A DNA stretch of 64,000 bases from Chloroflexota bacterium (GCA_022562155.1 JADFPV010000003.1:412-64411); one strand, 5' to 3'. Shown: positions 1 to 59,992, numbered from the stretch's first letter. Notes: a model not told the origin generated them from the sequence alone. Made by a program: numbers and translations.

Positions 1-524
1 ACCTGCGCGCGCCGACGCCATCGGCGGCGGCGGAGCTGGTCGCGCCCGAGCGGACCGAGGTCTCGGTGCGGCTCAGCATCGCGGCGGGCACGCTGCTCTC
101 GCAGGTGCAGGAGCGGCTCGAAGGCGGCAGAACGTTGGTCCGGCAGGCCGTCTCGACGATCGAACGCGCGACGCCCGACATGAACCGCGAACGGCAGCGC
201 ACTGACGACCTGACCCGGACGATCCAGGCGCATGTCGAAGAGAGCGTGCGCGGGTTCCAGAAAGGCCTGCACGGCTTCAACCTGGCGCTGCGGTCGCTCG
301 ACCCGTACGGAACATTGCAGCGCGGCTATGCGCTGGTCCAGCGCGACGGCCACGTTGTCGACACAGTCGAGGACACCAAGGTCGGCGAGCGGCTGAGCGT
401 ACGCGTGCGTGACGGTGACTTTCCGGTGCGCGTCGATACCGAGAGCCCGATACCCGACCAGAAACGACGCAAGAGGACCAAGGTGGCCCAAGAGCAGGCC
501 GCGCTGTTTCATCTAGATATCTAG
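1..524 (+). CDS. xseA: exodeoxyribonuclease VII large subunit, C-terminal fragment (gene begins upstream of window)
   Basis: Frame-3 open frame runs from the window edge to TAG at 522-524. The C-terminal tail is of the kind seen in XseA. Immediately followed by a clear xseB. Confidence 0.55.
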   Translation, partial: LRAPTPSAAAELVAPERTEVSVRLSIAAGTLLSQVQERLEGGRTLVRQAVSTIERATPDMNRERQRTDDLTRTIQAHVEESVRGFQKGLHGFNLALRSLDPYGTLQRGYALVQRDGHVVDTVEDTKVGERLSVRVRDGDFPVRVDTESPIPDQKRRKRTKVAQEQAALFHLDI

Positions 525-539
525 CGAGCAGGGGGCGTC

Positions 540-788
540 ATGACGGCGAAGAAGAGCGAACCTCCGTTCGAGGAGCTGTACAAAAAGCTCGAAGAGGCGG
601 TCGAGAAGCTCGAGAAGGGCGGCCTCTCGCTGGAGCAATCGATCGCGCTCTACGAAGAGGGGATGGAGCTGGCGAAGCAGTGCCAGGGCATCCTGGACAG
701 CGCCGAGCAGCGCATTACCAAGCTGCGGGAATCGTTTACAGAACCTGCCGAACAACCGGAAGAAGCTCCGTTACTAGAGGACGACTAA
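540..788 (+). CDS. xseB: exodeoxyribonuclease VII small subunit
   Basis: 82 aa. FEELYKKLEEAVEKLEKGGLSLEQSIALYEEGMELAKQCQ matches the XseB signature. Confidence 0.8.
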   Translation: MTAKKSEPPFEELYKKLEEAVEKLEKGGLSLEQSIALYEEGMELAKQCQGILDSAEQRITKLRESFTEPAEQPEEAPLLEDD

Positions 789-813
789 CGATCTCGAACC
801 TCCCGGCTGATCA

Positions 814-1479
814 ATGAAGGCCGACCTCCACGCCCACACGCACTTCTCTCGCGACGCCGTCACTTCGATCGAGACGTTCGCTAGACGCTACGAAGCGGCG
901 GGCATCGACTGCGTCGCCGTCAGCGACCACAACAACGTCGATGGCGCGCTCGCGGTGAACGGCATCGCTCCGTTCCGCGTGATCATCGCGGAGGAGATTA
1001 AATCGACCGAGGGCGAGATCATCGGGCTGTTCCTCAAGGAGACAGTCCGCAAGGGACTCACGCCGGAGGACACCGTGATGGCGATCCGCGAGCAGGGTGG
1101 CCTCGTACTGATCCCGCATCCCTATGACCGGCTACGTGGATCGCCACTGCGCGAAGAGGCCCTGCTGCGCATCATGCCCGACGTCGACGTGATCGAAGTG
1201 TTCAACGCGCGCACAACGTTCCAGGCCGATGACGACAAGGGCCGCAGGCTGGCCGAGGAGCACGGGAAGCCGATGAGCGCCGCCAGCGATGCCCACACGC
1301 CAGGGGAGATCGGCCTCGCCTATACTGAACTGCCCGATTTCGACGGCCCGGATAGCTTCCTGGCCTCGATTGGCAAGAGCAAGATCGTCGGGAAGCGCGC
1401 GTTCTTCGGCGTGCATTTCATCAGCACCTGGGCCAAGATCAAGTGGAGGCTCCACTTAGGGCGACGGGTCGCGCAGTAG
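814..1479 (+). CDS. PHP-domain metal-dependent phosphoesterase
   Basis: N-terminal HAHTHFSRD plus later His/Asp clusters (DHNN, PHP, SDAHT) typical of PHP family. Confidence 0.65.
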   Translation: MKADLHAHTHFSRDAVTSIETFARRYEAAGIDCVAVSDHNNVDGALAVNGIAPFRVIIAEEIKSTEGEIIGLFLKETVRKGLTPEDTVMAIREQGGLVLIPHPYDRLRGSPLREEALLRIMPDVDVIEVFNARTTFQADDDKGRRLAEEHGKPMSAASDAHTPGEIGLAYTELPDFDGPDSFLASIGKSKIVGKRAFFGVHFISTWAKIKWRLHLGRRVAQ

Positions 1480-1489
1480 GAGCAAGGCT

Positions 1490-2002
1490 ATGGGTGACGT
1501 AGCAATCCAACAATTGCTCTACCTCATGGACGAAGCGTTCAAAGCACATGGCGAGCACGGCGAGCACACGCTGCTTAACAACCTGCGCTCCGTCCAAGAC
1601 AACGACTGGCACTGGCTGCCTCCCAACGGCGGCCGCTCGATCTTCGACATCGTCCAGCACGTCGGCGAGTGCAAGTATGTATACGACAGCCACGCCTTCG
1701 GCGACGGTTCGATGCGTTGGGACAGACCAGGCACGATCCCATCGATCGACAGCGCCGCAAAAGCTCCCGACATCATCGTGTGGCTCAGGGAAGGCCAGCG
1801 CGCCCTGATAGAGAACGTCCAAGCGCTTGGTGATGACGAAGAGTTGCTTAAGCTCCGCAAGGCAAACTGGGGCGAGGAGTATGAGACGCGCTGGCTGATC
1901 AATACCATGATCCAGCACGACCTCTACCACGCCGGTGAGATCAACCACCTCCGTTCGCTCAAGCAAGAGACCGACAAGTGGGCCTGGCAGTTGGAGCAGT
2001 GA
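1490..2002 (+). CDS. DinB/YfiT-family (DinB_2-like) metal-dependent protein
   Basis: Three-His pattern (HGEH near N-term, HVGECKY, HDLYHAGEI near C-term) typical of DinB superfamily. Stop codon lies 1 nt before the next start. Confidence 0.55.
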   Translation: MGDVAIQQLLYLMDEAFKAHGEHGEHTLLNNLRSVQDNDWHWLPPNGGRSIFDIVQHVGECKYVYDSHAFGDGSMRWDRPGTIPSIDSAAKAPDIIVWLREGQRALIENVQALGDDEELLKLRKANWGEEYETRWLINTMIQHDLYHAGEINHLRSLKQETDKWAWQLEQ

Positions 2003-2003
2003 T

Positions 2004-2849
2004 ATGACGCTGCGCGTGGGCTGGTTCTCAACCGGCCGCGGCGATGGCTCGCGCCGGCTGCTGAAAGCGGCCACGGACGCTATCGGCGCGGGCGATCTCG
2101 ACGCGGAGATCGCGTTCCTGTTCTGCAATCGCGAACGCGGCGAGTACGAGGCAACAGACGGATTCCTGGACCTCGCCGAATCGCACGCCATCCCAACCAT
2201 CAGGCTGTCGTCACGCCAGTTCCGCCGCGATCGCGGTGGCGCTCTATCGAAGCCTGGCGAGCCGCTGCCGGCGTGGCGAGCCGAGTACGACGGCGAGGTC
2301 GCAAAGCTCCTTGAGGAACACCCATTCGACGTCGGCGTACTCGCCGGCTACATGCTGATCTTCACGCCGGAGATGGCCGACCGGTATCCGTTCCTCAACC
2401 TGCATCCGGCGGAACCCGGCGGGCCGATAGGCACCTGGCAACAGGTCATCTGGGACCTGATCGATGCGCGCGCCACACAGAGCGGTGTGATGATCCACAT
2501 GGCGACCGACGAACTCGACCGCGGTCCCATCGTCTCCTACTGTACATACCCGCTAGGCGGGGAGGCGTTCGACGCGCTCTGGGACGACGTCGGCGCGAAG
2601 ACGGCCGCCGGCTTACGGGCAGCGGCCGGTGAAGAGCATCCGCTGTTCTTGGAGATCCGCCGGCACGGCGCCGCGCGCGAGCTGCCACTCGTGATCGAGA
2701 CGTTGCGCGCGTTGTCGCAGGCCCGCGTGCAGGTCAACAATCGGCGCGTCGTTAACGGCCAAGGCGACCCGCTCGCAAACGGCCTCAACCTCACGGCGGA
2801 GGTGGAGACAACTATCGCGCCCGCGATGCGTAAGCGCAAACAGACCTGA
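2004..2849 (+). CDS. PurN-like formyltransferase (phosphoribosylglycinamide formyltransferase family)
   Basis: WFSTGRG...NLHP....GVMIHMATDELDRGPIV aligns with the PurN SGRGSN...NIHPSLLP...HFVTEELDGGPII motifs. ATG at 2004 follows the DinB stop. The upstream extension in the ORF track was rejected. Confidence 0.6.
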   Translation: MTLRVGWFSTGRGDGSRRLLKAATDAIGAGDLDAEIAFLFCNRERGEYEATDGFLDLAESHAIPTIRLSSRQFRRDRGGALSKPGEPLPAWRAEYDGEVAKLLEEHPFDVGVLAGYMLIFTPEMADRYPFLNLHPAEPGGPIGTWQQVIWDLIDARATQSGVMIHMATDELDRGPIVSYCTYPLGGEAFDALWDDVGAKTAAGLRAAAGEEHPLFLEIRRHGAARELPLVIETLRALSQARVQVNNRRVVNGQGDPLANGLNLTAEVETTIAPAMRKRKQT

Positions 2850-3095
2850 GGGGTACTACTCACTGGCGTCACGCCCGACGCATGCGCGTGCCCTCTGGGC
2901 ACGGGCGCCGTCCTTGGCGATTATCTCAAGATGAGGCCCGTGCCAGTGACTGGTGGCGAGGATCTGACACGGGCCGCAGGTTCAGTACTCGGTAGGAGGT
3001 CCTTTCCTATTAAGTTCTGCGTCCTGCACTACGTATAGTAAGGGAATGGGGCATGTAGGAGCAAGCGCCCACACTTATGATCAGTTGAATGGCCT

Positions 3096-3509
3096 ATGTC
3101 AACCAGCTATAATTGCCGAACCGTGAACGAACCCCGTTCCCCGCTGGATCCCGTCGCCTGCGGCCGATGTGAGGCCGTCTGTGAGATCGACGACAACTTC
3201 TGCCGCAAGTGCGGGTTGTCGCTTCGGGTCAGCGAGAACCTCCCTTCAGTACGGTCCAGTTCGCTCCCGGTCATCAGGCAACCGTCTGTGCCCGCCGTCG
3301 TCGTGCGCGGCGCCGCGTTCGTCGCCGCTGGAAAGATCGCGGAGATCATCGCCAGGCGCATGGTGCGCAGCGTGTTCCAGCGCAGCAACGGCTCCAAGAA
3401 CCTACCGGCCACGGCGAAACAGGGCGAGGTCGTCCCACGGGATGACATGGCGGAGACCACGGTGATCAGCGAAACGCTCCTGACGCGTCGAATTCATTTC
3501 CGCCGCTAG
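3096..3509 (+). CDS. hypothetical zinc-ribbon protein
   Basis: CGRCEAVC...CRKCG double CxxC zinc-ribbon at the N-terminus. No other recognisable domain. Confidence 0.3.
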   Translation: MSTSYNCRTVNEPRSPLDPVACGRCEAVCEIDDNFCRKCGLSLRVSENLPSVRSSSLPVIRQPSVPAVVVRGAAFVAAGKIAEIIARRMVRSVFQRSNGSKNLPATAKQGEVVPRDDMAETTVISETLLTRRIHFRR

Positions 3510-3622
3510 GCGCGGCGCGGGCGGCCCGGCGGAACGGGCCCATATCTCTCCATCAGGGCAGGATGCCCTTCACGTAACTCGCGAGGAAGGCGTGGCGGAC
3601 GTTCCGATGCGTCCGCGCAACG

Positions 3623-6060
3623 ATGGGGAAGGCGAGCATGACGGTGCGCGCATGGTTGCGCTGGCCGGCGTTGGTGGCGCTCGGCGCGGTGCTGGTTCTC
3701 ATCGCCCTCCAAGGCAGCCTCGGCGCGGACGAAACACGAACCACCTGGGACTTCGAGGGCGCAGACGCCCTGGACGGCTGGGTGCGGTTGAACGCGACCA
3801 TGACCCTTGCGCCGGGCGAAGGTGCAGAGGGTTCCCAGGCTGCCGGCATCACGCTAAGGAGCCCAAGTAATATTCCCATCAGACGCGTCCTAGCTGAGAT
3901 TTGGTACCCCTTGGATGTCCAGCCGGGCGCCACGTACGAGTTTGGCGGCGTGTACGTATCCGCAGACGGCAAGATCGATTGGGTCCGGCTCGGCATGCGA
4001 CTCTACGACAAGCACGGCAACCCATTAGCTGCGGACGTCGGCCCCCATTCCTCTATTCCTGGCAAACTGCACCTAGAGGCCGCGCCGAACCTCTGCTCCG
4101 TAGTGGAAATACATTTCCGAGTGCTTACGTACGGCGCAATAGACGCAACGGTCTACCTGGACAACCTCTCCCTCAAAGAGAGCGCGCCCGCGACTCCGTG
4201 TCCCACGCCCATCCCGTCGCAGACTCCGACAGCGACGCCAGTCCCGTCGCAGACTCCGACATCGACGCCAAGCCCGTCGCAAACTCCTACATCGACACCC
4301 GTCCCGTCGCAGACTCCGACATCGACGCCAAGCGCATCACATACGCCAACCTCGACACATACGCCAAGCCCGTCGCAAACTCCTACATCGACACCCGTCC
4401 CGTCGCAGACTCCGACATCGACGCCAACGCCTTCCCACACTCCCGCTGCGACCGCGACGGCATCGCAGACGGCCAGCGATCAGCCCGCTACCGCGACCAA
4501 CACAGCGCCTGGCGCGACGGCAACCGAGCCGCCACCCGCTCCAGCGTCGTTGGAGTTCTCCAATGGCGGTTTCGAGGAGGGGGGGACGGCGAACCCCATG
4601 CCTGGAAACACTTCGGCGGGGTGCTGATGCAGACAGGCACGCCGGCGCGCACCGGCTCGTGGGCAGGTGCGCTCTTCAGTTCGACCGACAGCACCAAATG
4701 GGCGTTCCAAACGGTGAACGTTGAGCCCGCCGGCTGGTACGAGTTCCATGCCTTCGTCTACCACGACGACCCGTGGGTGGAGTCGGCGCTACTGCGCATA
4801 TCGTGGTATGCCAGCGCCAACGGGAGTGGCAGCGCCGTCGCCGCCGTCGACTCAACAGACCTGCTCGCGTCGCCCGCGCCGGAGTTCCGCCGCCTCAGCA
4901 CAGGCCCGGAAATGGCGCCGCCGGGCGTTCACTCGGCGAAGGTGCGCGTGCTCATGCGGCCCCGCGACGGGACTAGCGCCGTGATCTACATCGATGACGC
5001 TTCGTTTGACAACGTCGCAGCCCCGATTCCGCCGACGAGCACCCCCACGCTCGCGCCACCGACCACCACGCCCACGCCGGCCTCGACCTCGACGAACACG
5101 CCCACCGCTCAGCCCACAACCGTACCAGCCAGCCCGGCGCCGGCCGACACACCACAGCCGGCGGATACGCCACCGCCAGCGGACACGGCCACACCAGTTC
5201 CGGCGGCTACAGCCACCAACGCTTCGACGTCGACACCCGAGCCAGCGAGCATCCCGTCCGCACTCACCAACGCGGGCTTCGAATCCGCAGTGGAAGGGGT
5301 CCCGGTCGGGTGGCGGACGTTCGGTGGGCTGCTCATGCAGGTCGATTCGCCGGTGCGATCGGGCGCGGCGGCCGGCGGTTTCTTCAGCTCCAGCGGCAGC
5401 ACGAAGTGGATCTACCAGACGGTCGCCGTCGAGCCGGCAGCCTGGTACCAGTTCGACGCCTTCGTCTACCACAACCACGCGTTCGTCGATGAAGCGCTGC
5501 TGCGCATCTCCTGGTACGCGAGCGCCGATGGCAGCGGTAGCGCCCTCGCCAGCGTCGATTCGACCGGCCTGCTCGCTTCTCCCGAGGCTCGCTACCGGCC
5601 GCTCACCACTGGCCCTGTGCAGGCGCCGCCGGGCGCGCGCTCCGCCAAGCTCCGCATCCTCATGCGGCCCCGCGACGAGAGGAGCGCGCTGATCAACGTC
5701 GACGACGTTTCGTTCGGGCGCGTCGCCGCGCCGGCCGTCGCGCCATCGACACCGGCACCGGTCAGCGCAGCAGCATCTTCCCGAGTGCTATCTTCCTTCG
5801 AACCCGCCGCGCCATCGGTCAGCAACCAGCGACCAGCGACCACCAACCAGCGACCAGCGACCACCAACGAGCGACCCTCTCACGCCCCCATGCCCGCGCC
5901 CGTGCTCCGACGCCACGCCCTACAGACACCGGAGCCACAGCCCGATCGCGAGGGCGACCCGCTCTGGCCGTGGGCCCTCCTCGGCGCGACGGCAGGAGCG
6001 GGCGTTGTAGGTTGGGCGGCATACTGGGCGCTGCGGCGGCGACGCGATGCAGTAAACTAG
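3623..6060 (+). CDS. secreted multi-CBM4/9-like repeat protein with Pro/Thr linkers and C-terminal TM anchor; reading frame interrupted at a G7 tract (possible pseudogene or sequencing error)
   Basis: Signal peptide MGKASMTVRAWLRWPALVALGAVLVLIALQG. Three about 150-aa modules beginning NGGFE/NAGFE..GW (CBM_4_9-like), separated by PSQTPTSTP linkers. The frame switches from frame 2 to frame 1 at 4579-4585 (ggggggg). Ends with hydrophobic helix plus RRRRD. Confidence 0.6.
4205..4445 (+). repeat. tandem 30-nt coding repeat (cccgtcgcagactccgacatcgacgccaag, about 7 copies) encoding PSQTPTSTP linker
   Basis: Direct visual tandem repetition in sequence. Confidence 0.8.
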
Positions 6061-6109
6061 CAGGCGACTTTCGTTTTCGACAGCAGCAGCGAAGATCAAG
6101 CTCTCGAGC

Positions 6110-7008
6110 TTGAGCGAGGAGGATGCTATGGAAATCGGCACGTGGGAAGTCACCAGCGAACTCAACGAGATCTACCAGCAGGCGAGAGACTTGGGACTGG
6201 AGCCCAACATCGCGGAGCTGGACGCGTACGGATTTACCGTGATCGAGAACGCCCTCTCCGATGAGGTAACCGATCAACTGGCGGAAGCTGTGCTACGCGT
6301 CGCGGAGAAACGCACCGGGACGAAGCCAGACACGACGACCGGAGAGACGCATCAAGGTCTCCAGCTTCAGATGGGTCTGCTATTCAAGACCGCATCTTCG
6401 AGGAGGTTCTGATGGAAGAGCCGGCCCTCACACTGATCACCTATTTGCTCGGCAAGAGCTGCGTGCTCTCCAGCGTCGCCTCGCACTTCAAGGGGCCCGG
6501 CGGCGGGAATCGCGGGCAGCTCGCCCTGCACAGCGACATTCAGGGTAATGGCGTGCCGGTGCCCCTGCCCGGGTACGCGCAGGTCGCCAACTGCAACTAC
6601 GCGCTCACCGATTACACCGAAGCCGATGACGGTGTGCTCGCCATGGTGCCGGGCAGCCACAAGCTGTGCCGCTACCCGGACGAATGGGACCTGCGCAAGA
6701 GTAAGCAGGCCATCCCTGTCCTTGCTCCCAAAGGCTCCGCCATCATCTTTCACGGCAACACGTTCCACGGCTCCTATGAACGAATGAAGCCCGGCTTTCG
6801 GATCAATCTCTCCTACTACTTCTGCCGCCATTACATGGACCCGACAGAAGGCTTTCGAGACACCGTTTCGGAGGAGATGCTCGAGCGAAACAACGAGCGA
6901 TTCGCCACGCTCATGGGAACGACCCGACCTCGCGGCTGGAGCGAAGCGAATCAAGACTTGTCGGGAGTCGCGATTCGCAGCCGGCTTGCAAAGAACCAAT
7001 ACCTATAG
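6110..7008 (+). CDS. phytanoyl-CoA dioxygenase (PhyH) family protein, split into two frames (6110-6412 frame 2; 6412-7008 frame 1)
   Basis: First ORF has the PhyH N-terminal motif YGFTVIENALSDEVTDQL. Second has ...LLG...LHSD (HxD) and GSAIIFHGNTFHGS (distal His). Frame 1 stays open upstream of 6412 and encodes a DRIFEEVL..LLG-like motif, so a frameshift lies about 6290-6380. Confidence 0.55.
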
Positions 7009-7020
7009 GGGGAGCTCCTG

Positions 7021-7938
7021 ATGCGCGTAGAGTTCGGTTCGCAACTGCACAATCAAGCCACGACCTGGGACGACATCAAGGCCACGCTCGCGGCGATGGA
7101 ATCGGGGCGTTGGTCGAGCGCCTGGTTCTACGACCACTTCATTCCTCCCTTCAGCTACACCGCTGAAGTCATGGAGCACGATGGGATCGCGACGTTCGAG
7201 GGCTGGTCGTTGCTCAGCGGCGCCGCCGCCGTCACCAACCGGCTGCGGCTCGGCCTACTCGTCGCGGGCAACACCTACCGCAACCCGGCGCTGATGGCCA
7301 AGATGGCGGCGACCGTCGACCAGATGTCGAACGGCAGGCTCGAGATCGGGATCGGTGCCGCTTGGAACGTCCGAGAGCACCAGGCCTACGGCTGGGAGTT
7401 CCCGTCGCCCAAGGAACGATCGGACCGCCTGGAGGAAGCCTGCGAGCTGTTCAAGCTCCTCTTCACGGCAGAAGGGCTCGTCGATTTCCATGGCAAGTAC
7501 TACACACTGAAGCAGGCGCCTTTTGCACCCAAGGGCGTGCAGCGCCCCCACCCGCCGATCCTGGTCGGTGGCAAGGGAGAAAAGCGAACGCTTCGTACTC
7601 TGGCGATGTACGGCGACATCATGAACGTAATCGCGGGACCTGAGGAGTTCAAGCGTCTGGTCGGCGTGCTCGAACGTCATTGCGAAGACGTCGGCCGCGA
7701 TCTGGCGACGATCCGCAAGACCGTCCACGTCCCGATCCGCATCATGGCGGACGAGGCCAGGGCGGCGGAACTCAGGCGCGGCGACGACTGGAACATGATC
7801 GGCCCGGTGCCGTTCGTGATCGATCGCGTAAACGACTTCATCGAGGCCGGCGTCGACGAGTTCATGTTCTCAGCCATCCCCAACAAGCCTGCGGTCTACG
7901 AAGAACTCGACAAGGAGATCCTGAGCGCCATCGAGTGA
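7021..7938 (+). CDS. LLM-class F420-dependent oxidoreductase (luciferase-like monooxygenase family)
   Basis: Strong similarity to the paralog at 20709-21659. Shared LRLG.LV.G.TYR.P...AKMAATVD..SNGRLE.G.GAAW motifs typical of F420-dependent LLM enzymes. Confidence 0.75.
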   Translation: MRVEFGSQLHNQATTWDDIKATLAAMESGRWSSAWFYDHFIPPFSYTAEVMEHDGIATFEGWSLLSGAAAVTNRLRLGLLVAGNTYRNPALMAKMAATVDQMSNGRLEIGIGAAWNVREHQAYGWEFPSPKERSDRLEEACELFKLLFTAEGLVDFHGKYYTLKQAPFAPKGVQRPHPPILVGGKGEKRTLRTLAMYGDIMNVIAGPEEFKRLVGVLERHCEDVGRDLATIRKTVHVPIRIMADEARAAELRRGDDWNMIGPVPFVIDRVNDFIEAGVDEFMFSAIPNKPAVYEELDKEILSAIE

Positions 7939-8232
7939 ATCGCTGAAGCCATCCGGCTCGCGGCACGAGGCATCGCCAGCCGCGTCGATGCGCAGGACCC
8001 GCTGAAGGCGCTGGCTCAGGCTTGAGCGCAGGATCCTAACCCACGGGACTCTTCGACGCCAGGGCAGGGGTCACCGCCGTCTGCTAAGCTGCTTATCCGA
8101 CGCTACGAGGACGGCGTTTGGACCGACCAGGCGCGGGAAATGCTAGGCGTGGCGCCCCTAGAGGCTACGTTGGTCCGACGAAGTGCGGCCTCCGAGCCCC
8201 CGCGACGGAATCGGCACAACTGGCGGTTTGAG

Positions 8233-10275
8233 TTAGCTCGCCTTTCGATCAGCGGGCCGAATGCGGGCCTTCTTGGCCTGGCTGAGAAGTCGCTCAAAGG
8301 CGGCTGCTGGCAGCGGCTCTGAGAAGAGGAACCCTTGAAATTGATCACAGTGATGCTCTCTGAGGAAACTGAGCTGCTCTTCGGTTTCTATGCCCTCCGC
8401 AATCACCGTAAGGTGGAGACCATGTGCCAAAGCGATTGTATTGGCGACGATAACGGCGTCGCGCGAGTCGGTCGCCACGTTTTCTAGAAACGAACGGTCG
8501 ATCTTGAGCGTGTCCATCGGAAGGTCCTTGAGGTAGGCGAGAGATGAGTAGCCGGTGCCAAAGTCATCTACAGCAGTTTGCAGCCCTAGGTCACGCAAGC
8601 TCGCCAAAGTTGCTACCGAAAGCTCGATGTCCTGCATGGCGATCGTCTCCGTGATCTCTAGCTGGAGGCAAGACGGGTCCAGCCGCGTGTCCTTCAATAC
8701 TTGACGAATTGAGGCGACCAAGTCCGCATGCCTAAACTGGCGACCCGAAAGGTTCACTGCTAAGCCCAGGTGCGCCAGACCGGCCTCGCGCCAGGCCTTG
8801 GTCTGCAGACAGGCGCTCCTGAGAACCCATTCGCCGAGGGGCACGATTAAGCCGGTCTCTTCCGCGACCGCGATGAATTCGCCCGGCCCGATCAGCCCCT
8901 GCTCGGGATCTTGCCAGCGTACAAGAGCTTCCGCGGATACGATCTCGCCAGTAGCTACGTCGACCACGGGCTGGTAGTGGACGACAAACTCGCCCTCCTG
9001 AAGTGCGCGACGCAGGGCTCGCTCCATTTCGAAACGCATCATGAATTTGGCATTCATCGCCGCGTTGTAGAACCTGTGGGTATTTCGGCCGGCCTCCTTC
9101 GCCGCGTACATGGCAGAATCAGCGTTCTTCAGCAGGTTCTCGGCATTCTTCCCGTCTTGCGGATAGATTGCGATGCCAGCGCTGGCCGTAATCTGGAAAT
9201 CTCTGTGACCGAGCTGCCAGCGCTCCTGCAGCTTGCTAAGCAGCGTTTCGGCGACCTGATCGAGATCATCCGGCCCTCTGATTCCCGGCAGCACCAACAC
9301 GAACTCGTCGCCACCTAGCCGAGCGACTGTGTCGCCATCTCGGATGGCGTCCTTCAGCCGGTTAGCTACCCCTTGCAGGAGTTCGTCCCCGGAGGTGTGA
9401 CCCCAGCTGTCATTGAGTAGCTTGAAGTGATCCATGTCGATCAGTACGACGCCGAGCCCGTCGCCCTGGCGCTGTGCTAGAGCTATGGCGACGGTGAGGC
9501 GGTCGGAAAATAGCCTCCGATTCGGTAAGCCGGTGAGCGGGTCATGATAGGCAGCGTGCAAGAGTTGAGTCTGCTGCTTGTGCATACGGTCTGAGTCGCG
9601 TTTGACGAGGAGCAGCAGCGCCATGAAGAGGCCACCTATCGAGACGCCAATACCCAAGTAGACTCGCCTCTTGGTGGCGGCGATCTGAGCGTCCACAGTG
9701 TCATAGTCGCTCTTGATTTCGACTGCCCCGACAACTTGCTGAGACTCTCCAAGGCGAAGCGGTGCGTAGGCCTCAAGGATCTTGCTGCGATCGAGAAAGA
9801 CGACCACCTCGCCGCCAAGCGCGGCACCTAAACGCTCACCCAATTCATCTTCCTTCTCAACAAGTTGCGATTCGGTGGAATAGGCTAGCGAACCGTCCGA
9901 AGTCCAGACGTTCAAGCGCAGGACGGACTCGTCGATGAGATCTGCGTCAACGTAGCGCTCAAGCGCGCCAGCATCGACGTTATCGAGTGAACCGTCGACG
10001 AGACGGGATTCCAGGAACACTTCAAGCTGTTTAGCGGTGGCTACAGCGTTATTCCCGACGAATCGGCTCGCGTCCGTTGACAGGCTGGCCGTCAGGTAGG
10101 CGCCAAGGAGGAGGCCGACGACCAATGTGACAATGATGCCCATCGTCAGGAACGCGAGCGTAAAGCTGATAGGTACAGTCTTTAGGCGCTGCCACACCCT
10201 GCGGAACAGGGTAGGCGGCTGACCGCTCACGAACACGGGCGCACCCGCCTCGCGCTTCCAGTAGGAGGGGCTCAT
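8233..10275 (-). CDS. membrane-anchored sensor diguanylate cyclase/phosphodiesterase (GGDEF-EAL)
   Basis: Two TM segments flank an extracytoplasmic sensor domain. RLGGDEFVLVL GGDEF motif and EALVRWQDP EAL motif. Confidence 0.85.
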   Translation of the reverse strand: MSPSYWKREAGAPVFVSGQPPTLFRRVWQRLKTVPISFTLAFLTMGIIVTLVVGLLLGAYLTASLSTDASRFVGNNAVATAKQLEVFLESRLVDGSLDNVDAGALERYVDADLIDESVLRLNVWTSDGSLAYSTESQLVEKEDELGERLGAALGGEVVVFLDRSKILEAYAPLRLGESQQVVGAVEIKSDYDTVDAQIAATKRRVYLGIGVSIGGLFMALLLLVKRDSDRMHKQQTQLLHAAYHDPLTGLPNRRLFSDRLTVAIALAQRQGDGLGVVLIDMDHFKLLNDSWGHTSGDELLQGVANRLKDAIRDGDTVARLGGDEFVLVLPGIRGPDDLDQVAETLLSKLQERWQLGHRDFQITASAGIAIYPQDGKNAENLLKNADSAMYAAKEAGRNTHRFYNAAMNAKFMMRFEMERALRRALQEGEFVVHYQPVVDVATGEIVSAEALVRWQDPEQGLIGPGEFIAVAEETGLIVPLGEWVLRSACLQTKAWREAGLAHLGLAVNLSGRQFRHADLVASIRQVLKDTRLDPSCLQLEITETIAMQDIELSVATLASLRDLGLQTAVDDFGTGYSSLAYLKDLPMDTLKIDRSFLENVATDSRDAVIVANTIALAHGLHLTVIAEGIETEEQLSFLREHHCDQFQGFLFSEPLPAAAFERLLSQAKKARIRPADRKAS

Positions 10276-10787
10276 CGGGTAAAACGCGCGTCTGTATCTT
10301 GCTCAGATGTCATCTGGCGATATGGCCTCCTGAATCTATTGTCGGCAGAGTTTCCTGCTGAGAATAGTCCTATCCAGGGCAGGCCTTGTTATGTACTACC
10401 TGGTATGAGTAGCCAAAGTAGCGCGGCAGGAGGCTGGCTCCACGCTCTGTGGGGAAACTGGCCCCCTGCAGCCGGCCTTGTACGCCTCTTAGGCCCTTGC
10501 ACATACTCTCCCTGGACACCAATCAGAAGGAGCAAGACGAGACGAAGGCCGAGACAGAGAACGAGGCCGAACGCGACGCCCAAGCCGCCGATTCATCCGG
10601 ATTCAATCAAAGAATCGAGGCAATTTTGGCCCTTCCCAGATTCACGAGCGCGCCCAAAACCGCGATTCCAATCAAGCAATCAACATAGCCTGCGAAGCAG
10701 ACTCCGCCTTGTATACTCTCCCTAGACACCAAGCAAAAGGAGCAAGACGAGACGAACGCCGAAAGCAAGAGCGAGGCCACGCGAGCG

Positions 10788-11453
10788 ATGCCAGCCAGCA
10801 TTGCGATTGACGGCCCCGTTGCTTCCGGCAAGAGCGCCGTGGGAAGCAGGCTGGCGCGCCACCTCGGCTACCGGCTCGTCGACACCGGCATGATGTATCG
10901 AGCAATCACCTGCCTGGCGCTGGACAAGGGCCTCGACCTCCACGACGAGGCCGCGCTGGCCGCATTGGGCGCGTCGGTGAATATGGAGGTCACGCCGGGC
11001 CCCGCGGACGACCCGGACGCTTCGCGCGTGCTCGTGAACGGCACGGACGTGACGAACAGGCTGCGTTCGCCGGACGTGGGCGATGCGGTATCGTTGGTCT
11101 CACGTGTCCCGGCCGTGCGCAAAGCGATGGTCGCGATCCAGCGTGACATCGCCAGCGACGGGAGCGTCGTCATGGTCGGCCGGGACATCGGCACCGTCGT
11201 CCTGCCCGATGCGCCGCTCAAGGCGTACTTGGACGCATCGGTGGAGGAGCGGAGCCGCCGCCGCCACGCCGAGCTGCAAGCGGCGGGGAGAACAGAATCG
11301 ATCGAAGACGTCCGCGAGCAGCTCGCACTCCGCGACGAGATCGATAGCCAGCGCGACACGTCGCCGCTGCGTCCCGCCGACGATGCGCTCGTCATCCAGA
11401 CCGACAACATGACCATCCAGAACGTCGTCGACCGCATCCTGGAGGAAGTGTGA
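10788..11453 (+). CDS. cmk: cytidylate kinase
   Basis: IAIDGPVASGKSAVGSRLARHLGYRLVDTGMMYRA matches the Cmk P-loop N-terminus. Confidence 0.85.
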   Translation: MPASIAIDGPVASGKSAVGSRLARHLGYRLVDTGMMYRAITCLALDKGLDLHDEAALAALGASVNMEVTPGPADDPDASRVLVNGTDVTNRLRSPDVGDAVSLVSRVPAVRKAMVAIQRDIASDGSVVMVGRDIGTVVLPDAPLKAYLDASVEERSRRRHAELQAAGRTESIEDVREQLALRDEIDSQRDTSPLRPADDALVIQTDNMTIQNVVDRILEEV

Positions 11454-12136
11454 TGCTGCTACGGGCTTACCGCCGCGCTATCATCCTGCTGGACAGGTTC
11501 CTCTTCACCCTCTACGCGCGTAAGTTCGAAGTAGTCGGGGGCGAGAACGCGCCGGTCGAAGGTCCGCTCATCGTGGCCAGCAACCATCTCAACAACGCCG
11601 ATCCGCCGGCGGTGGCGCTCGCGCTCCCGCGCCTCCCGGTGTTCATGGCCAAGCGCGAGATGCTCACGTGGCCCATTCTTGGCCTCGGGTTCCGCATGTT
11701 TGGCGCGTTCCCCGTCCGCAGAGGAGGCGCGGACCTCTCCGCCATCCGCGCCGCGACGGACATCGTGAACGAAGGGAACATGCTTGTCATGTTCCCGGAG
11801 GGCACCCGCAGCCGTACCGGCGGCCTCACGAAGGGTCACCCCGGCACAGCGCTGGTCGCGCTACGGACGGGCGCCCCTATCCTTCCCGTCGCCGTCACCG
11901 GCACAGAGAAGATCGTGTGGCCCTGGCTCTTCATCAAGCCGCTTTCGATCCGGCACGTAACCGTCACACTTGGCAAGCCGTTCACGCTGCCGCCTGTCGA
12001 AAAGATCGACGGCGAGGCAGCGGCCGAGGCGACGAAGGTCATCATGGGCAAGATCGCCGAGCTGCTGCCGCCGGAGTATCGCGGCGTCTACGGCGATACC
12101 CGAGAGGAGCCTGCAGCGACGCCTATCGAGGCATGA
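11450..12136 (+). CDS. plsC: 1-acyl-sn-glycerol-3-phosphate acyltransferase
   Basis: NHLNNADPP (HX4D) and FPEGTRSRTG motifs. ATGA overlap with cmk. Confidence 0.75.
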   Translation: MMLLRAYRRAIILLDRFLFTLYARKFEVVGGENAPVEGPLIVASNHLNNADPPAVALALPRLPVFMAKREMLTWPILGLGFRMFGAFPVRRGGADLSAIRAATDIVNEGNMLVMFPEGTRSRTGGLTKGHPGTALVALRTGAPILPVAVTGTEKIVWPWLFIKPLSIRHVTVTLGKPFTLPPVEKIDGEAAAEATKVIMGKIAELLPPEYRGVYGDTREEPAATPIEA

Positions 12137-12176
12137 CCTACGACCGCCCTACGTAGACGTATATACTGAACTTACT

Positions 12177-13046
12177 ATGGAAATTCTCCTAGCGAGCGAG
12201 ATGGGCTTCTGCTTCGGCGTGCGGCGCGCCGTCGACCTCATGGAGGAGGCCACGGACGAGACCGGCCAGATCGTCAGCCTCGGCTCGGTCGTCCACAACC
12301 CACAGGTGATGTCGCAACTCAAGGAGCGCGGCCTGGACATCATCGCCTCGCTGGAAGACGTGAGCGACCGGCCCGTCGCCATCACGGCCCATGGCGTGAG
12401 CCAGGCGGTTGTGCAGGAACTGGAGAGCAAGGGCGTTCCCGTCCTTGATACGACGTGCCCGATCGTCACCCGATCACAGCAGTGGGCGAAGCGCCTCACT
12501 GAAGAGGGCTTCGCCGTTGTCGTATTCGGCGATCCGAACCACAAAGAGACGCGCGGCGTGCTCGGTTGGGCGGAAGGTAACGCCTACGCCATACCTACTA
12601 TCGAAGACATCGCGTCGCTCCCCGACGAACTGCCTTCCCGCATCGGCGTACTGTCGCAGACGACCGAGACAGAGGCTCACTTTGCCGAGTTCGTGCGCGC
12701 GCTGCTGGAGCAGCGCATGGACCGCATCAGCGAGTTGCGCGTGATCAATACGCTCTGCAACGCGACGACGAGCCAGCAGGCAGCGGCACGGGAGCTGGCG
12801 CACCAGGTCGGCGTGATGATCGTCATCGGGGGCAGCGAGAGTGCGAACACGCGCCACCTCGCCGAAGTCGCCCGCGAAGAGGGCACGACCGCCTACCAGG
12901 TAGAAACGGCCGACGACATCCAGCCCGAGTGGCTGGAGGGCCAGGAGAAGGCCGGCGTCACGGCCGGCGCCTCGACGCCAGACTCAGCGATAGACGCCGT
13001 AGTAGCGCGTTTGCGCGAATTGAGCGAGAATGGGACGTCGGGCTGA
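12177..13046 (+). CDS. ispH: 4-hydroxy-3-methylbut-2-enyl diphosphate reductase
   Basis: MEILLASEMGFCFGVRRA IspH N-terminus. Start moved to ATG 12177, not the long upstream extension in the ORF track. Confidence 0.85.
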   Translation: MEILLASEMGFCFGVRRAVDLMEEATDETGQIVSLGSVVHNPQVMSQLKERGLDIIASLEDVSDRPVAITAHGVSQAVVQELESKGVPVLDTTCPIVTRSQQWAKRLTEEGFAVVVFGDPNHKETRGVLGWAEGNAYAIPTIEDIASLPDELPSRIGVLSQTTETEAHFAEFVRALLEQRMDRISELRVINTLCNATTSQQAAARELAHQVGVMIVIGGSESANTRHLAEVAREEGTTAYQVETADDIQPEWLEGQEKAGVTAGASTPDSAIDAVVARLRELSENGTSG

Positions 13047-13095
13047 AGCCCGGCCCGCGAGATTTCCGGAGGCCAGGCTTCAGCCTGGCGATCAA
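13040..13095 (+). terminator. GC-rich hairpin after ispH (gctgaagcc...ggcttcagc), weak U-tract
   Basis: Inverted repeat visible in sequence. Confidence 0.3.
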
Positions 13096-13139
13096 GGATA
13101 GGAGGTGATACGCAGAGCGCGCGGAGCGACGCGAGTCAC

Positions 13140-13340
13140 GGTAGAGTAAGCGCCAGATCCCGGCCACGCTGGTGAAACCAGGCAGTCGGGATGACGAGGA
13201 GGAGGTCTATCGAATCATTCGGCGGATGGCCTCCCGGCAAGTACAGTCGTCATGGCCGGTACAAACCAGGGGTGCAAATCCCTGCCAAAAAGCCGTCCAA
13301 CGTACCGGGGGAAACTGCAACCCCTGCCCCACGCAGGCCG
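13140..13340 (+). ncRNA. glmS ribozyme: glmS ribozyme (GlcN6P-responsive self-cleaving riboswitch)
   Basis: aAGCGCCAGAtCC cleavage-site core at 13149, and GACGAGGAgGAGGUcUAUCGAAUcaUUCGGCGGAUGgCCUCCCGGC matching the conserved glmS ribozyme core. Sits directly 5' of glmS. Confidence 0.7.
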
Positions 13341-13436
13341 CGCACACTAGACACAGCATAACTCCAAGGTAGACATAGATACCGTTCGCGCCGCGATAGG
13401 TTCGCGACGCGCTGGTGGCGACGAAAGGAGTGCTGC

Positions 13437-15281
13437 ATGTGCGGCATCATTGGGTACGCGGGCACGCGCCAGGCCAGTCCACTGCTGGTGGAAGGCCTGC
13501 AACGGCTCGAGTACCGCGGATACGACAGCGCCGGCATCGCTGTTCTCGACAGCGACGGCCAGCTACACGTCAAGAAACAGCAGGGCAAACTCGCGAAGCT
13601 GACAGCCAGCCTGGAGGGCGTGCATCCGCCGGGCACGATTGGGCTGGCGCACACGCGTTGGGCGACCCACGGCAAGCCTTCGGACGAGAACGCGCATCCT
13701 CAGCAGGACTGCAGTCAGGAGGTGGCGGTCGTCCACAACGGCATCGTCGAGAATTACCTCGACCTCGGCCAGGAGTTGATGGCGCAGGGCCATGGGCTAA
13801 CATCGGAGACCGATACTGAGGTCATCGCCCATCTGATTGAAGCGAACCTCCAGAACGGCGACGAGCTACACGAGGCCCTACGGCACGCCATTCAGCGCAT
13901 CGAAGGCTCTCATGCGATCGTGGCACTCACGAAGAACGATCCGGACCGCCTCGTGGCGGCGCGTGTGGGCAATGCGGGCGGCGTGGTCATCGGCTACGGC
14001 GAAAACGAACACTTCATCGCGAGCGACCTGCCGGCGCTCTTACCCGAAACACACAGGGTAGTCTTCCTCGACGACGGCGAGCTAGTGGAGCTGACACGCG
14101 AGAGTGTGCGCTACTGGGACGCCGCCGGCGAACCGATCGACAAGGAACCGCAGACCGTACCGCTCGACCCCGTCGCGGCGGCCAAAGGCACCTACAAGCA
14201 CTTCATGCTCAAGGAGATCGTCGAGCAGCCCGAGTGCGTGCTGGACACGTTCCGGGGCCGCGTCCTGTTCGACCCGCCGAGCGTGCAGTTAGAGGACCTC
14301 GATATGTCGGCCGACACCCTGCGTAACATCGAGCGCGTCGTGCTCATCGCGATGGGCACGAGCCTGCACGCGGCGATGGTCGGCCGGCGCTACTTCGAGG
14401 AGCTGGCTGGGCTGCCGGCTGAGGTCGACTACGCATCGGAGTTCCGCTACCGCAGTGCCATCGTCGGACCGGAGACGCTCGTCGTAAGCGTTGCGCAGTC
14501 CGGCGAAACCGTCGATACGCTGGAAGCGATGCAGGAAGCGCAGCGGGCCGGCTCGCCGCAGATCACGATCTGCAATACGCCGGGCGCGCAGTCGACCCGA
14601 GTCGCGGACGCGACGGTCTATACCCGCTGCGGGCCGGAGATCAGCGTGGCGAGCAGCAAGACGCTGACGGCGTCGATGATCGCGCTCTACCTGCTCGCGT
14701 GCCACATCGGCCGCGTGCGCGGGCGCCTGGACGAAACCCAACTGGCGGAACTGACCGGACCGCTCGCCCACCTGCCCGACCTGATGGGACGAGTCCTCCA
14801 TGGCGCACCCGCAATCGAAGAACTGGCGCACCAGTTCCAGAGCTACCACCACTTCCTCTTCCTCGCGCGCGGCCTCCAGTACCCGGTCGCGATGGAGGGA
14901 GCACTCAAGCTGAAAGAGCTGAGCTACATCCACGCCGAGGGCTACCCGGCGGGCGAGATGAAGCACGGGCCGATAGCGCTGATCGACGAGCAGATGCCGA
15001 CGATCGCGATCGCAGTCCGAGACGGCATGCGTGAGAAGATGCGGTCGAACATTGAGCAGGTGCGAGCACGCGACGGCACGGTGATCGCGCTCATCAACGA
15101 AGGCGATACCGAGATGGCGCAGAAGGCCGACCACGTCATCGAAGTGCCGGAGACGACGCCACTGTTGCTGCCGTTGCTGACGGTGCTGCCGCTACAACTG
15201 TTGGCCTACTACATTGCGGTCTTGCGCGGCTGTGACGTGGACCAGCCTCGTAACCTCGCAAAGACGGTGACCGTGGAATAG
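13437..15281 (+). CDS. glmS: glutamine--fructose-6-phosphate aminotransferase
   Basis: MCGIIGY N-terminal nucleophile, two SIS domains, full length 614 aa. Confidence 0.95.
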   Translation: MCGIIGYAGTRQASPLLVEGLQRLEYRGYDSAGIAVLDSDGQLHVKKQQGKLAKLTASLEGVHPPGTIGLAHTRWATHGKPSDENAHPQQDCSQEVAVVHNGIVENYLDLGQELMAQGHGLTSETDTEVIAHLIEANLQNGDELHEALRHAIQRIEGSHAIVALTKNDPDRLVAARVGNAGGVVIGYGENEHFIASDLPALLPETHRVVFLDDGELVELTRESVRYWDAAGEPIDKEPQTVPLDPVAAAKGTYKHFMLKEIVEQPECVLDTFRGRVLFDPPSVQLEDLDMSADTLRNIERVVLIAMGTSLHAAMVGRRYFEELAGLPAEVDYASEFRYRSAIVGPETLVVSVAQSGETVDTLEAMQEAQRAGSPQITICNTPGAQSTRVADATVYTRCGPEISVASSKTLTASMIALYLLACHIGRVRGRLDETQLAELTGPLAHLPDLMGRVLHGAPAIEELAHQFQSYHHFLFLARGLQYPVAMEGALKLKELSYIHAEGYPAGEMKHGPIALIDEQMPTIAIAVRDGMREKMRSNIEQVRARDGTVIALINEGDTEMAQKADHVIEVPETTPLLLPLLTVLPLQLLAYYIAVLRGCDVDQPRNLAKTVTVE

Positions 15282-15777
15282 ACCGACTCTGAGCCCCGGA
15301 CCTACAACTGCGCCCGCGCCGTTCGCACCGATCGAATGCATCTGAGAGCCTTTCGGTCATGGCATCGGCGTCCTGACAACGGACCAATGGCGTAACAGCC
15401 TCGACTACGGTGCGATACCCTACCCCGGCGGGCGGTTCGAAGTCCGCCTCGCGCCGCGGCTTGAGATTGTCAGGCATGATCTTCTTTAGAACAAAGTCCG
15501 TTGCCTCCCATGGATGCCTAGACTCCAAATCGGATTCGGCCACCTGCCAGAATCGAAAAGATACGAACACATTGTTGGTGCCAGGACCAGGAACGGATGT
15601 TAACGAACGAAGTGGCTTGAAGACCAAGTCCTCAAGCTCATCCATGTGCTCCTCGGTGTAAAAGGCCAACGTACTGCCGTCAGCGACTGGCAGGGCATCA
15701 GGAAGTTCGACAAAGAATACAACCAACCGGAGCTCCTCGTTCGCTTCCCCTGTGGCCGCCGGCGCATCCAACGTCAA
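15136..15777 (-). CDS. hypothetical protein (lower-GC; 3' end overlaps glmS, true stop uncertain)
   Basis: ORF with protein-like N-terminal 130 aa. The C-terminal tail is Arg/Ser-rich and overlaps the glmS 3' end by 146 nt. Local GC about 50%. Confidence 0.3.
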   Translation of the reverse strand: MTLDAPAATGEANEELRLVVFFVELPDALPVADGSTLAFYTEEHMDELEDLVFKPLRSLTSVPGPGTNNVFVSFRFWQVAESDLESRHPWEATDFVLKKIMPDNLKPRREADFEPPAGVGYRTVVEAVTPLVRCQDADAMTERLSDAFDRCERRGRSCRSGAQSRSIPRSPSLRGYEAGPRHSRARPQCSRPTVVAAAPSATAATVASSPALR

Positions 15778-23023: not shown

Positions 23024-23110
23024 GGGTGACAGGACAATGGGAAGAGTCTATATTGTAGACGATTGACAGCCCTCAGCAGTGAGACAACGCGGGAGGCGGA
23101 AGGTTCGAAC

Positions 23111-24232
23111 ATGCCAGGCAACAACGGAACGGTAGAGGCCAGACTTGAACCACAAGCAGAGCTTCAATTTGACGAGAGAAACCCGCGCCTTCTGGAGCAG
23201 CTTCGAAAGAACGGTACAGGCATCTCGCAGGAAGACATCATCCGGATACTTTGGCGCGAGTTCGCCGTTGACGAAGTTGCCATGTCCATCGCCGCGAACG
23301 GCTATTTCCAGCATGAACCGCTTTTCGTCACACGCGACGACGATCATCTGGTCGTAGTAGAGGGTAACCGGAGACTCGCCGCCGTGCGGCTGCTCCTAAA
23401 CAGCAACCTGCGACGCCAGCTTGGAGCAACAGATCTCCCTCGGATCACCGAACGAGTACGACGCGGTCTGCAGGAGATTCCCGTTATCGAGTGCCAACGC
23501 AATGCTGTTTGGGAGTACATTGGGTTCAAGCACGTAAACGGACCGCAGGCTTGGCAACCGGTCGCAAAGGCCGGGTACATCGCTTGGGTGCGGAACACGC
23601 TCAAAGTCCCTCTCGACCGGATTGCAAAACAGATCGGCGATCAGCATTCTACGGTTCGCCGACTTTATCGCGGCCTCATGGCCCTCGAGCAGGCCGAAGT
23701 AGCCGGTGTGTATGACCGCGAAGAACGCTGGAGAGCGCGCTTCGCCCTGTCACACCTCTACACAGGACTCGACTACCCTAGCATTCAGAAGTTTACGGGA
23801 ATTTCGGGTGAGGCCAGTTACTCGAAGCGGCGACCCATTCCGAAGAGGAAGATCAAGGAGTTCGGCGAGCTGTGCATCTGGCTCTACGGCAGCAAGACCA
23901 AGGAACAACCACCGATTGTGCAGCGTCAGAATCCTGACCTTAGGAATCTCGCCGAGGTGCTGGGAAGCAGAGATGGCCTAGCTGCGCTACGTAAGGGATT
24001 GCCTCTCCAAATCTCGTTGGACATTAGCAAAGGCGACGAACAGTTATTCAGAGAAGCGCTTGTTGCCGCGAAGCAGTCGCTCCAGGACGCGCGCGGAAGA
24101 CTCATAACGGGCTATGAGGGCGAACCCGACCTCTTGGACACCGCGGAGGACATTCGGGAACTCGCTGTCGACACCCACAAGGCGATGATAAAGGTTCACG
24201 ACTCGCGCCGGAAGAAGAGGCGCACAGGGTAA
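23111..24232 (+). CDS. ParB/Srx-like N-terminal domain protein (alternative start 23063)
   Basis: HLVVVEGNRRLAAVRLL arginine-containing ParB-box-like motif. RBS gggaggcggaagg lies before ATG 23111. Region GC is clearly lower than its flanks. Confidence 0.55.
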   Translation: MPGNNGTVEARLEPQAELQFDERNPRLLEQLRKNGTGISQEDIIRILWREFAVDEVAMSIAANGYFQHEPLFVTRDDDHLVVVEGNRRLAAVRLLLNSNLRRQLGATDLPRITERVRRGLQEIPVIECQRNAVWEYIGFKHVNGPQAWQPVAKAGYIAWVRNTLKVPLDRIAKQIGDQHSTVRRLYRGLMALEQAEVAGVYDREERWRARFALSHLYTGLDYPSIQKFTGISGEASYSKRRPIPKRKIKEFGELCIWLYGSKTKEQPPIVQRQNPDLRNLAEVLGSRDGLAALRKGLPLQISLDISKGDEQLFREALVAAKQSLQDARGRLITGYEGEPDLLDTAEDIRELAVDTHKAMIKVHDSRRKKRRTG

Positions 24233-24247
24233 CCTCCTGGAACAAGA

Positions 24248-25195
24248 ATGACACAGATACCCGCTGCGCCTGCAGCTTCGGCACCTCCAGAGAAACATGC
24301 GGACTGGCTAGAACTGCTAGCCCTCAGTTCGCCCGACAAGAACAGTTCGTTTCAGGACCTAATCAAGGAATTCAGGCACTCTGGATCGGTTGATGCCCTT
24401 GGGGAGGACGATTCGGTAGAGAAGTTTACCGATAAGGGCTCCGAACGCAGTCAGCTTCTAGCTGAAGAGGCTTTTAACGAGATCAGCGACCGCCACGACG
24501 CCTGCGGGATCGTTGCGAGCAGCTATGCGTTCGACATAAGCGCTCAATACATTCAGGCACGCCAGCAATACGACCAGTCTATCTACGCGTTTCTTCTCTT
24601 GCTAAGTAAGTTCGGAAAGGATGCAGGACCAGATACTATCGACCTGCTCGATCTGTTCGACAAAATCAGTGGGTCCGCTGCTAGCGAGTACATGGGTGGT
24701 CCGACGGCTGGGGTACAATTCTACTTGTTTGGCTTCCCACGAAGGGTAGCACCACCAGGCTTTCGAGATGCCCTGGATGATCTGTGTAACAGGCTTGGAG
24801 AGGGCGGCGGCTCTAAAGACGGCCCAACCAGGAAGAACCAGAAGGACGCCAAGTTAGACATAGCCGTGTGGCGAGCGTTCAATGATGGCCGTGTTGGCAA
24901 GTTCATCGGGTTCGGTCAGTGTGCAACGGGGGAAGATTGGCCTAAGAAACTAACGGAACTCCAGCCCACCAATTTCATTAAGAAATGGATGCATAAACCG
25001 CTCGCCGTGGATCCGATTAGGTTGTTCTTCACTCCTCACCGAGTACCGTATAGCGGGTGGGAGGATGATTCGATTGACGGCGGAGTACTGTTCGACCGCT
25101 GCCGAATTTCTGCGCTCACGAGAGATCTGGACGATACATTAGTCCGCGAGTGCAGAAAGTGGACTAGGTTCGTCATCAGGAAGCACCTCAAGTGA
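24248..25195 (+). CDS. hypothetical protein (possible nuclease partner)
   Basis: 315 aa, no confident motif. Stop overlaps the next gene's GTG start (coupled). Confidence 0.45.
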   Translation: MTQIPAAPAASAPPEKHADWLELLALSSPDKNSSFQDLIKEFRHSGSVDALGEDDSVEKFTDKGSERSQLLAEEAFNEISDRHDACGIVASSYAFDISAQYIQARQQYDQSIYAFLLLLSKFGKDAGPDTIDLLDLFDKISGSAASEYMGGPTAGVQFYLFGFPRRVAPPGFRDALDDLCNRLGEGGGSKDGPTRKNQKDAKLDIAVWRAFNDGRVGKFIGFGQCATGEDWPKKLTELQPTNFIKKWMHKPLAVDPIRLFFTPHRVPYSGWEDDSIDGGVLFDRCRISALTRDLDDTLVRECRKWTRFVIRKHLK

Positions 25196-26283: not shown

Positions 26284-26304
26284 AGGCGGTGGTCGCTAGC
26301 CGGA

Positions 26305-55595: not shown

Positions 55596-55664
55596 GCTGG
55601 CAACCCCCTTAGACCAACAACGGCTGAGGACTGTGTGGCGGCCGTCGTCCTTGGCGGCCGCTTG

Positions 55665-55710
55665 TAGATGGGGTCTAGTATGATGCTCTTGCCTTAGGTT
55701 GTCAACAGAA
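55665..55710 (-). promoter_or_regulatory. TTGACA-N17-CATACT promoter upstream of surface protein 3
   Basis: Conserved element, see above. Confidence 0.45.
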
Positions 55711-59964: not shown

Positions 59965-59992
59965 GGCGAGGGCTTGCTTCTTCGGCCATGTG

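Follow-up and report, generated by a model that had tools for sequence, protein, structure and literature searches.

The window, the 64-kb stretch of DNA that was analysed in full and to which all positions refer, is part of a Chloroflexi MAG and carries a gene for a secreted multi-module protein whose reading frame breaks at a run of seven G residues. The question raised by this locus is whether the break is a true mutation, an error of sequencing or assembly, or a switch that the cell uses. The first-pass annotation had described one gene split at 4579-4585, with a frame-2 part ending at 4627 and a frame-1 continuation to 6060, and all of these coordinates were confirmed, as was the -1 shift, which intact orthologues span. 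The frame-2 ORF at 3623-4627 terminates in ...FEEGGTANPMPGNTSAGC*, 14 codons past the G7 run, and frame 1 reads ...GGGDGEPHAWKHFGGVLMQTGTPARTG... at the tract and stays open through to 6060. The frame-2 ORF consists, in order, of a signal-like hydrophobic N-terminus, module 1, a Pro/Thr/Ser-rich linker, LEFSNGGFEEGG, 13 unrelated residues, and a stop. Frame 1 from the tract onward gives GGGDGEPHAWKHFGGVLMQ..., followed by linker 2, module 3, and a hydrophobic C-terminus. Module 2 thus resumes in frame 1 as a homologue of module 3 (63% identity), as had been proposed, and one base inserted at the tract yields a continuous 812-aa protein. The features of the locus are as follows.

3623-4627, plus strand: upstream fragment in frame 2, 334 aa (329 aa from the alternative start ATG at 3638), running from the signal peptide through module 1 and linker 1 into module 2, of which the initial 12 residues are read before 13 residues out of frame and TGA
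3623-3727, plus strand: predicted Sec-type signal peptide or N-terminal hydrophobic segment (MGKASMTVRAWLRWPALVALGAVLVLIALQGSLGA), read from the translation
3731-4192, plus strand: module 1, a divergent beta-sandwich copy, placed by hhalign against the module alignment
4193-4549, plus strand: linker 1, Pro/Thr/Ser-rich with PSQTPTSTP repeats, open in frame 1 too
4579-4585, plus strand: G7 run, with the deletion site between 4583 and 4584 (GGGGG-C-GG in the closest intact relative, L002)
4586-4627, plus strand: out-of-frame end of the truncated product (TANPMPGNTSAGC) with its stop codon, from the translation
4585-5025, plus strand: remainder of module 2 in frame 1 (DGEPHAWKHFGG...DDASFDNVAAP), from the translation and module comparison
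5026-5256, plus strand: linker 2, Pro/Thr-rich, in frame 1, from the translation
5257-5733, plus strand: module 3 in frame 1, modelled as a beta-jelly-roll (pLDDT 96.9)
5734-6060, plus strand: C-terminal stalk, in which the conserved PMPAPVLRR is followed by PLWPW, a hydrophobic anchor at about 5974-6033, RRRR, and the stop

The segment at 3623-3727 appears to be a signal peptide, judging from its basic n-region, its hydrophobic core, and the small residues ahead of DE. Module 1 matched the module alignment with an hhalign probability of 84.6% (E = 6.9e-6, 137 columns). Because linker 1 is also open in frame 1, a 719-codon frame-1 ORF is listed from 3901. The bases 4579-4585 (GGGGGGG) form the sole homopolymer of at least seven in the 64-kb window, and dinucleotide shuffles gave an expectation of 8.1 ± 2.9 G7 runs per window versus the one observed. 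Across the whole window, seven-G/C runs were strongly depleted, and A or T runs were all shorter than six. As a G7 run is not improbable by chance, the tract itself is not the evidence of a frameshift; at the sequence level, the frameshift is established by the homologous module that continues in the other frame and by the intact orthologues that align across the site.

A word-indexed protein search with module 2 returned one fragment (P0001), and the true orthologues surfaced only by exhaustive HMM search. The intact protein P0151 (821 aa) falls in the 90%-identity cluster of the frame-1 product and is encoded on L002, the ENA scaffold BAIS20-1_SAMN15458160_METAG-scaffold_3. This scaffold matches the window with an identity of 94.1% over 1-7938 and of 96.9% over 10703-15317. 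The orthologue P0005 (743 aa), encoded on L001 (GCA_044232495.1), is also intact but more distant. On the upstream side, both loci are syntenic with the window, with a formyltransferase gene, a small ORF, and the surface-protein gene. The ortholog comparison that the first-pass annotation had called for showed single uninterrupted ORFs of 821 and 743 aa in L002 and L001, respectively, and the codons at the site are as follows.

L002: TTC GAG GAG GGG GCG GAC GGC GAA CCC CAT, encoding F E E G A D G E P H
L001: TTC GAG GAG GGA GCC GAC GGC AAA CCC CGT, encoding F E E G A D G K P R
Window: TTC GAG GAG GGG GG- GAC GGC GAA CCC CAT, frame lost

The window is one base short of both relatives, the flanks of the site match, and both relatives lack a homopolymer at the site (GGGGGCGG in L002 and GGGAGCCG in L001). 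The polarity of the change relative to the two intact relatives is that of a loss in the window, and the lesion is present in a second assembly, which is described below. The most economical reading of this alignment is a loss of C from a GCG (Ala) codon, turning G5-C-G2 into G7. As the lesion is the loss of a C that interrupted the Gs, the G7 run is the consequence of the mutation and not its cause. The earlier suggestion of a repair to G8 or G5 was therefore right in that G8 restores the frame, but an ancestral G8 or G5 tract was not found in the relatives; the FEEGG-D reading derived from it was not supported either, because G8 gives Gly-Gly and both relatives encode Gly-Ala (GGG GCG and GGA GCC). 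A scan of JGI metagenomes with the tract flanks and a variable gap gave zero matches.

The gene next downstream is split as well.

6129-7008, plus strand: PhyH-family dioxygenase gene with a one-base deletion (TTT to TT at 6383)

The deletion divides the product into 94 aa and 198 aa, and the repaired gene gave a single continuous PhyH match (positions 2-207 of 213, 73.9 bits). The gene is intact (293 aa) in L002, L088, L089, and many cluster members, and it is not present in L001. Among the 80 other loci of the surface-protein family, a PhyH gene was found within 4 kb of the family gene at none, and the upstream formyltransferase gene was a frequent neighbour. A functional link between PhyH and the surface protein, which could have accounted for both lesions, was rejected for this absence of PhyH neighbours. 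Because the PhyH gene is not conserved next to the family gene, a common function does not account for the two neighbouring lesions.

We consider that the locus probably records a genuine, ordinary, and recent single-base truncating deletion in this uncultured Chloroflexota lineage. The competing view that the organism has GGGGGCGG and an intact gene, with the missing C being an error in the MAG consensus, bears first on the other assemblies of the lineage. The ENA scaffold L007 (ERZ23498787, ZHOU22-1_SAMN16252680_METAG-scaffold_878) is 99.6-99.8% identical to window positions 1-14472 and carries the same G7 run together with the identical one-base PhyH deletion. Over 14.5 kb, the differences between L007 and the window come to 43 SNPs, which are clustered, and a single indel in intergenic sequence; for the assemblies L004 and L006, the differences were all SNPs, with 0 indels in 8 kb. 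With so few indels among the assemblies of the lineage, the data are not indel-noisy. As a second assembly pipeline reproduces the G7 run, an indel made by the assembler is unlikely, and the assembly-indel option raised earlier loses ground in that form. L007 is independent of the MAG in software and may not be so in reads, so the two shared deletions, found despite 43 SNP differences, argue against an artefact with this reservation. The window is itself from a MAG, and the surface-protein gene is hard to assemble, as seen in the 100-N scaffold gap within module 3 in L007. To gauge the frameshift background, the BAIS20 scaffold (L002, L003, and L090) was compared with the window over about 45 kb. 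Coding indels that were not a multiple of three were found at 4584, 6383, 59974, and 62055; three gene-disrupting one-base deletions were in the window lineage (4584, 6383, and 59974) and none in BAIS20, and the Pfam matches of the remaining genes checked in the window were full-length. That all three single-base changes in 64 kb are deletions, and all on the window side, could mean a problem of data quality. The deletion at 59974 (59973-59989, minus strand) takes the C out of codon 6 in a GT2 glycosyltransferase gene (ATG GCC GAA GAA GCA A^G CCC...), which is annotated by NCBI with an ATA start (MCH7697502.1, MAHGRRSKPSP...), and the relatives begin with MAEEATPSPITSL. This deletion is not present in the window-type assemblies L092, from the same sample as L007, and L093, which counts in favour of the artefact view and means that the MAG holds at least one private variant or error. 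The one-base difference at 62055, seen relative to L090, lies in the last codons of HPPK, which converges with a 78-aa ORF; it is harmless, changing only the extreme C-terminus of HPPK (171 aa versus 168 aa). With respect to the base at 4584, the contig names of related assemblies (k141_ and NODE_..._cov_) suggest short-read assemblers, with which consensus single-base deletions are rare outside long homopolymers, and the base lost is a lone C between G runs rather than a miscalled homopolymer length. Taken with L007, these points make a read-level artefact unlikely, and the deletion is probably a true mutation, though a polymorphism carried by a minority or a majority of the population may underlie it.

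The age of the deletion can be read from the sequence beyond it. Between the window and L002, dS was 0.32 and dN/dS was 0.31 upstream of the lesion, and dS was 0.054 and dN/dS was 0.41 downstream of it. The 492 codons downstream of the lesion are open, with no extra stops and no indels off a multiple of three, and because they are also close to the intact orthologue (dS 0.054), the lesion is recent. An old, decaying pseudogene, long inactive in the lineage, would fit the break in the neighbouring PhyH gene, the complete absence of PhyH from the more distant L001, and the differences between the window and L007 past the lesion (4 non-synonymous and 3 synonymous). It would not fit the 492 open codons or the low dS to the intact orthologue at a dN/dS of 0.41, which is based on few substitutions and is not clearly raised over the upstream value of 0.31, so that a positive signature of decay appears to be absent from the downstream dN/dS. 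The intact downstream frame largely refutes long-standing decay, which we regard as unlikely on this ground and, all points considered, as highly improbable. The recent pseudogenisation named in the first-pass annotation was the best supported of its three options. In the N-terminal part, module 1 and linker 1 (3638-4550) showed a dS of 0.32-0.41 to L002 with several linker indels, and modules 2 and 3 (4586-6060) showed a dS of 0.054; this suggests that the N-terminal part may be mosaic or hypervariable.

The remaining view is that the frame break is functional, with G7 as an off state and G8 or G5 as an on state, or with -1 ribosomal frameshifting or transcriptional slippage, so that some full-length protein is made. 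Poly-G and poly-C contingency loci are known from the phase-variable surface genes of Neisseria, Haemophilus, and Campylobacter; such tracts are conserved as tracts, are usually at least eight long, and vary in length between and within strains. Like these loci, the window has a G run within a gene for a surface protein, the class to which contingency loci usually belong, and the run length sets the frame; it is also the lone run of at least seven in a depleted window (1 versus 8.1 expected), and the affected residue, which would change from Ala to Gly upon reversion, is variable across the family. In contrast to those loci, the tract is missing in the two intact relatives and stands at G7 in both assemblies that carry it, L007 being the one other assembly of the lineage at the site, so the phase variation considered earlier found no support. 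As in programmed -1 frameshifting of the dnaX and IS3/IS911 type, the zero-frame codons GAG GGG GGG ACG contain a formal X_XXY_YYZ heptamer (G_GGG_GGG), a -1 slip on which gives exactly FEEGGDGEPHAW, and the remainder of the protein is encoded in the -1 frame. Unlike in those systems, a stimulatory structure and conservation are lacking. The RNA downstream was no better folded than its shuffles (4586-4685, -40.9 kcal/mol versus a shuffle mean of -39.3, z = -0.47; 4560-4660, z = -0.10), no hairpin or pseudoknot signal of a -1 frameshift stimulator was found, and GGAGG abuts the heptamer instead of lying about 10 nt upstream. The two-frame arrangement is not conserved either, with single ORFs in the relatives and continuous multi-module proteins among 830 family representatives. 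In E. coli, the G-heptamer class is the weakest, and for G_GG.G_GG.U lacking a stimulator, -1 frameshifting was 0.018%, the lowest value measured and at or below the background of 0.055% (PMC4066793). The adjacent PhyH gene is broken without a slippery motif, which fits plain decay. Programmed frameshifting was thus rejected on RNA structure, conservation, and motif strength; without RNA structure, tract conservation, or length variation, neither it nor phase variation is supported, and a functional switch of any of these kinds is quite improbable. It is very improbable that the new poly-G tract, accidental in origin, now serves as a reversible switch (G7 to G8, giving a functional Gly-Gly variant) or allows leaky -1 slippage on G_GGG_GGG. 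If that were true, a contingency locus would have been caught at birth in Chloroflexota, a phylum in which we know of no described contingency locus.

Under the preferred reading of a recent truncating deletion, the ancestral gene would have encoded a surface protein of about 810-820 aa, in which three CBM-like beta-sandwich modules, connected by Pro/Thr linkers, lay between a signal peptide and a C-terminal hydrophobic anchor. Loss of the C from ...GAG GAG GGG GCG GAC... would have fused G5 and G2 into G7, and translation would now stop 14 codons past the lesion. At most, a secreted 334-aa fragment with module 1 and the linker would be made, without the anchor, and modules 2 and 3 with the anchor, having neither a start codon nor a signal peptide of their own, would be effectively unmade. 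The G7 run would be a by-product at which reversion or rare slippage of the ribosome or polymerase may be slightly likelier than at an ordinary site; nothing indicates that the cell uses either. Frameshifted surface-protein pseudogenes are likewise divided into two ORFs by a one-base deletion, with close relatives intact and the downstream part still coding, and nothing essential differs here except that the deletion removed a base between two G runs and so made a homopolymer. The biology is ordinary. For scans that combine a homopolymer with a frameshift in search of phase variation, the case indicates that the presence of the tract in relatives should be checked first, because the tract here is a scar.

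The protein belongs to a sizeable and uncharacterised family of anchored, multi-CBM-like surface proteins restricted to Chloroflexota. An exhaustive HMM search found the module in 830 cluster representatives at E <= 1e-3, and most of these were unbroken, 450-1200 aa long, and built of two to five modules. In data with one genome per species, all members were from Chloroflexota, the majority from Dehalococcoidia (Tepidiformaceae among them) and some from Anaerolineae; this range came from a profile search of genome contigs with a 6-sequence alignment, and a single-protein query gave no match. In the repaired 812-aa protein, Pfam CBM_4_9 (PF02018) had no match at E <= 1, the sole Pfam match was DUF7490 (15.9 bits, under the 27-bit cut-off), and NCBIfam NTTRR-F1 (NF033675) scored 38.7 bits in two stretches within residues 313-461, short of its cut-off of 70. 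The AlphaFold2 model of module 3, made from a 19-sequence alignment (pLDDT 96.9), is a beta-jelly-roll of the CBM4/22 type, and several modules of CBM4, CBM16, CBM22, and CBM61 superpose on it at a sequence identity of just 9-20%. Unlike those families, the window protein has no catalytic domain, its family is confined to Chloroflexota, and it has its own C-terminal anchor motifs. The model thus upholds the earlier description as a multi-CBM4/9 protein with respect to fold, and the absence of a PF02018 match does not; 'CBM4/9-like' is correct as a label for the predicted fold, with carbohydrate binding putative.

The C-termini of the family (window 5880-6060 and proteins P0002-P0151) fall into two conserved styles. 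One has PxPxPV[IL]RR, 20-30 residues, W[WP]PW, a hydrophobic helix, and RRR, and the other has ATPVxLANV[KR]P ... DW, a helix, and RRRR. No NCBIfam sorting-signal model matched the family C-termini; from their sequence, the motifs look like a Chloroflexota-specific anchoring or sorting signal. Disrupted copies were present at 3 of the 80 other family loci. In L052 (3749-4004), about 10 nt are missing where module 2 begins (NGGFE), so that GGFE is lost and the frame changes, within a few codons of the equivalent of the lesion site in the window. In L034 (at about 4259), TGG is changed to TAG at the invariant Trp of the ISWYAS motif, and in L040 (at about 4706), TGG is changed to TGA at the invariant Trp of the STKW motif. 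As other members of the family are independently disrupted, loss of the protein recurs, a mild hint that it may be dispensable or counter-selected in some settings across lineages.

In the public record, the one gene stands as two 'hypothetical proteins'. The frame-1 ORF is P0003, or MCH7697459.1 ('MAG: hypothetical protein IH865_00770 [Chloroflexi bacterium]'), on a 71,189-nt contig, and this entry is used as a cluster representative in large protein collections. The first approximately 118 residues of MCH7697459.1 (620 aa, window 4201-6060) are the PT linker in the wrong frame (SHAHPVADSDSDASPV...). An exact look-up of the 334-aa product found no record, nor did look-ups of P0003 and of the cation-efflux protein, and the 329-aa product from the second ATG was matched on the ENA scaffold ERZ23498787 (L007).

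Elsewhere in the window, the codon-usage frame plot gave frame-switch candidates at 1490/1935, 21763/22139, and 11450/11970, which were rejected as separate complete genes by Pfam. A DNA methylase gene at 25192-26283 was likewise rejected as a further frameshift, the enzyme being complete with FxGxG before SPPY. It lies in a three-gene island (23030-26300) between rplA and a MaoC dehydratase gene, with a GC content of 56% versus 61-62% in the flanks. The island encodes proteins of 389 and 315 aa without a Pfam match and the complete DNA methyltransferase (FxGxG ahead of SPPY), and it is missing in the relative L003 and in L005. Compared with the BAIS20 scaffold, gene content varies at 7938-10703, 45184-47670, and 51645-55751. 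An 828-aa protein and a 1368-aa FG-GAP repeat protein of the window are not encoded on that scaffold, and in place of the GGDEF-EAL gene of the window it carries two extra PhyH paralogues.
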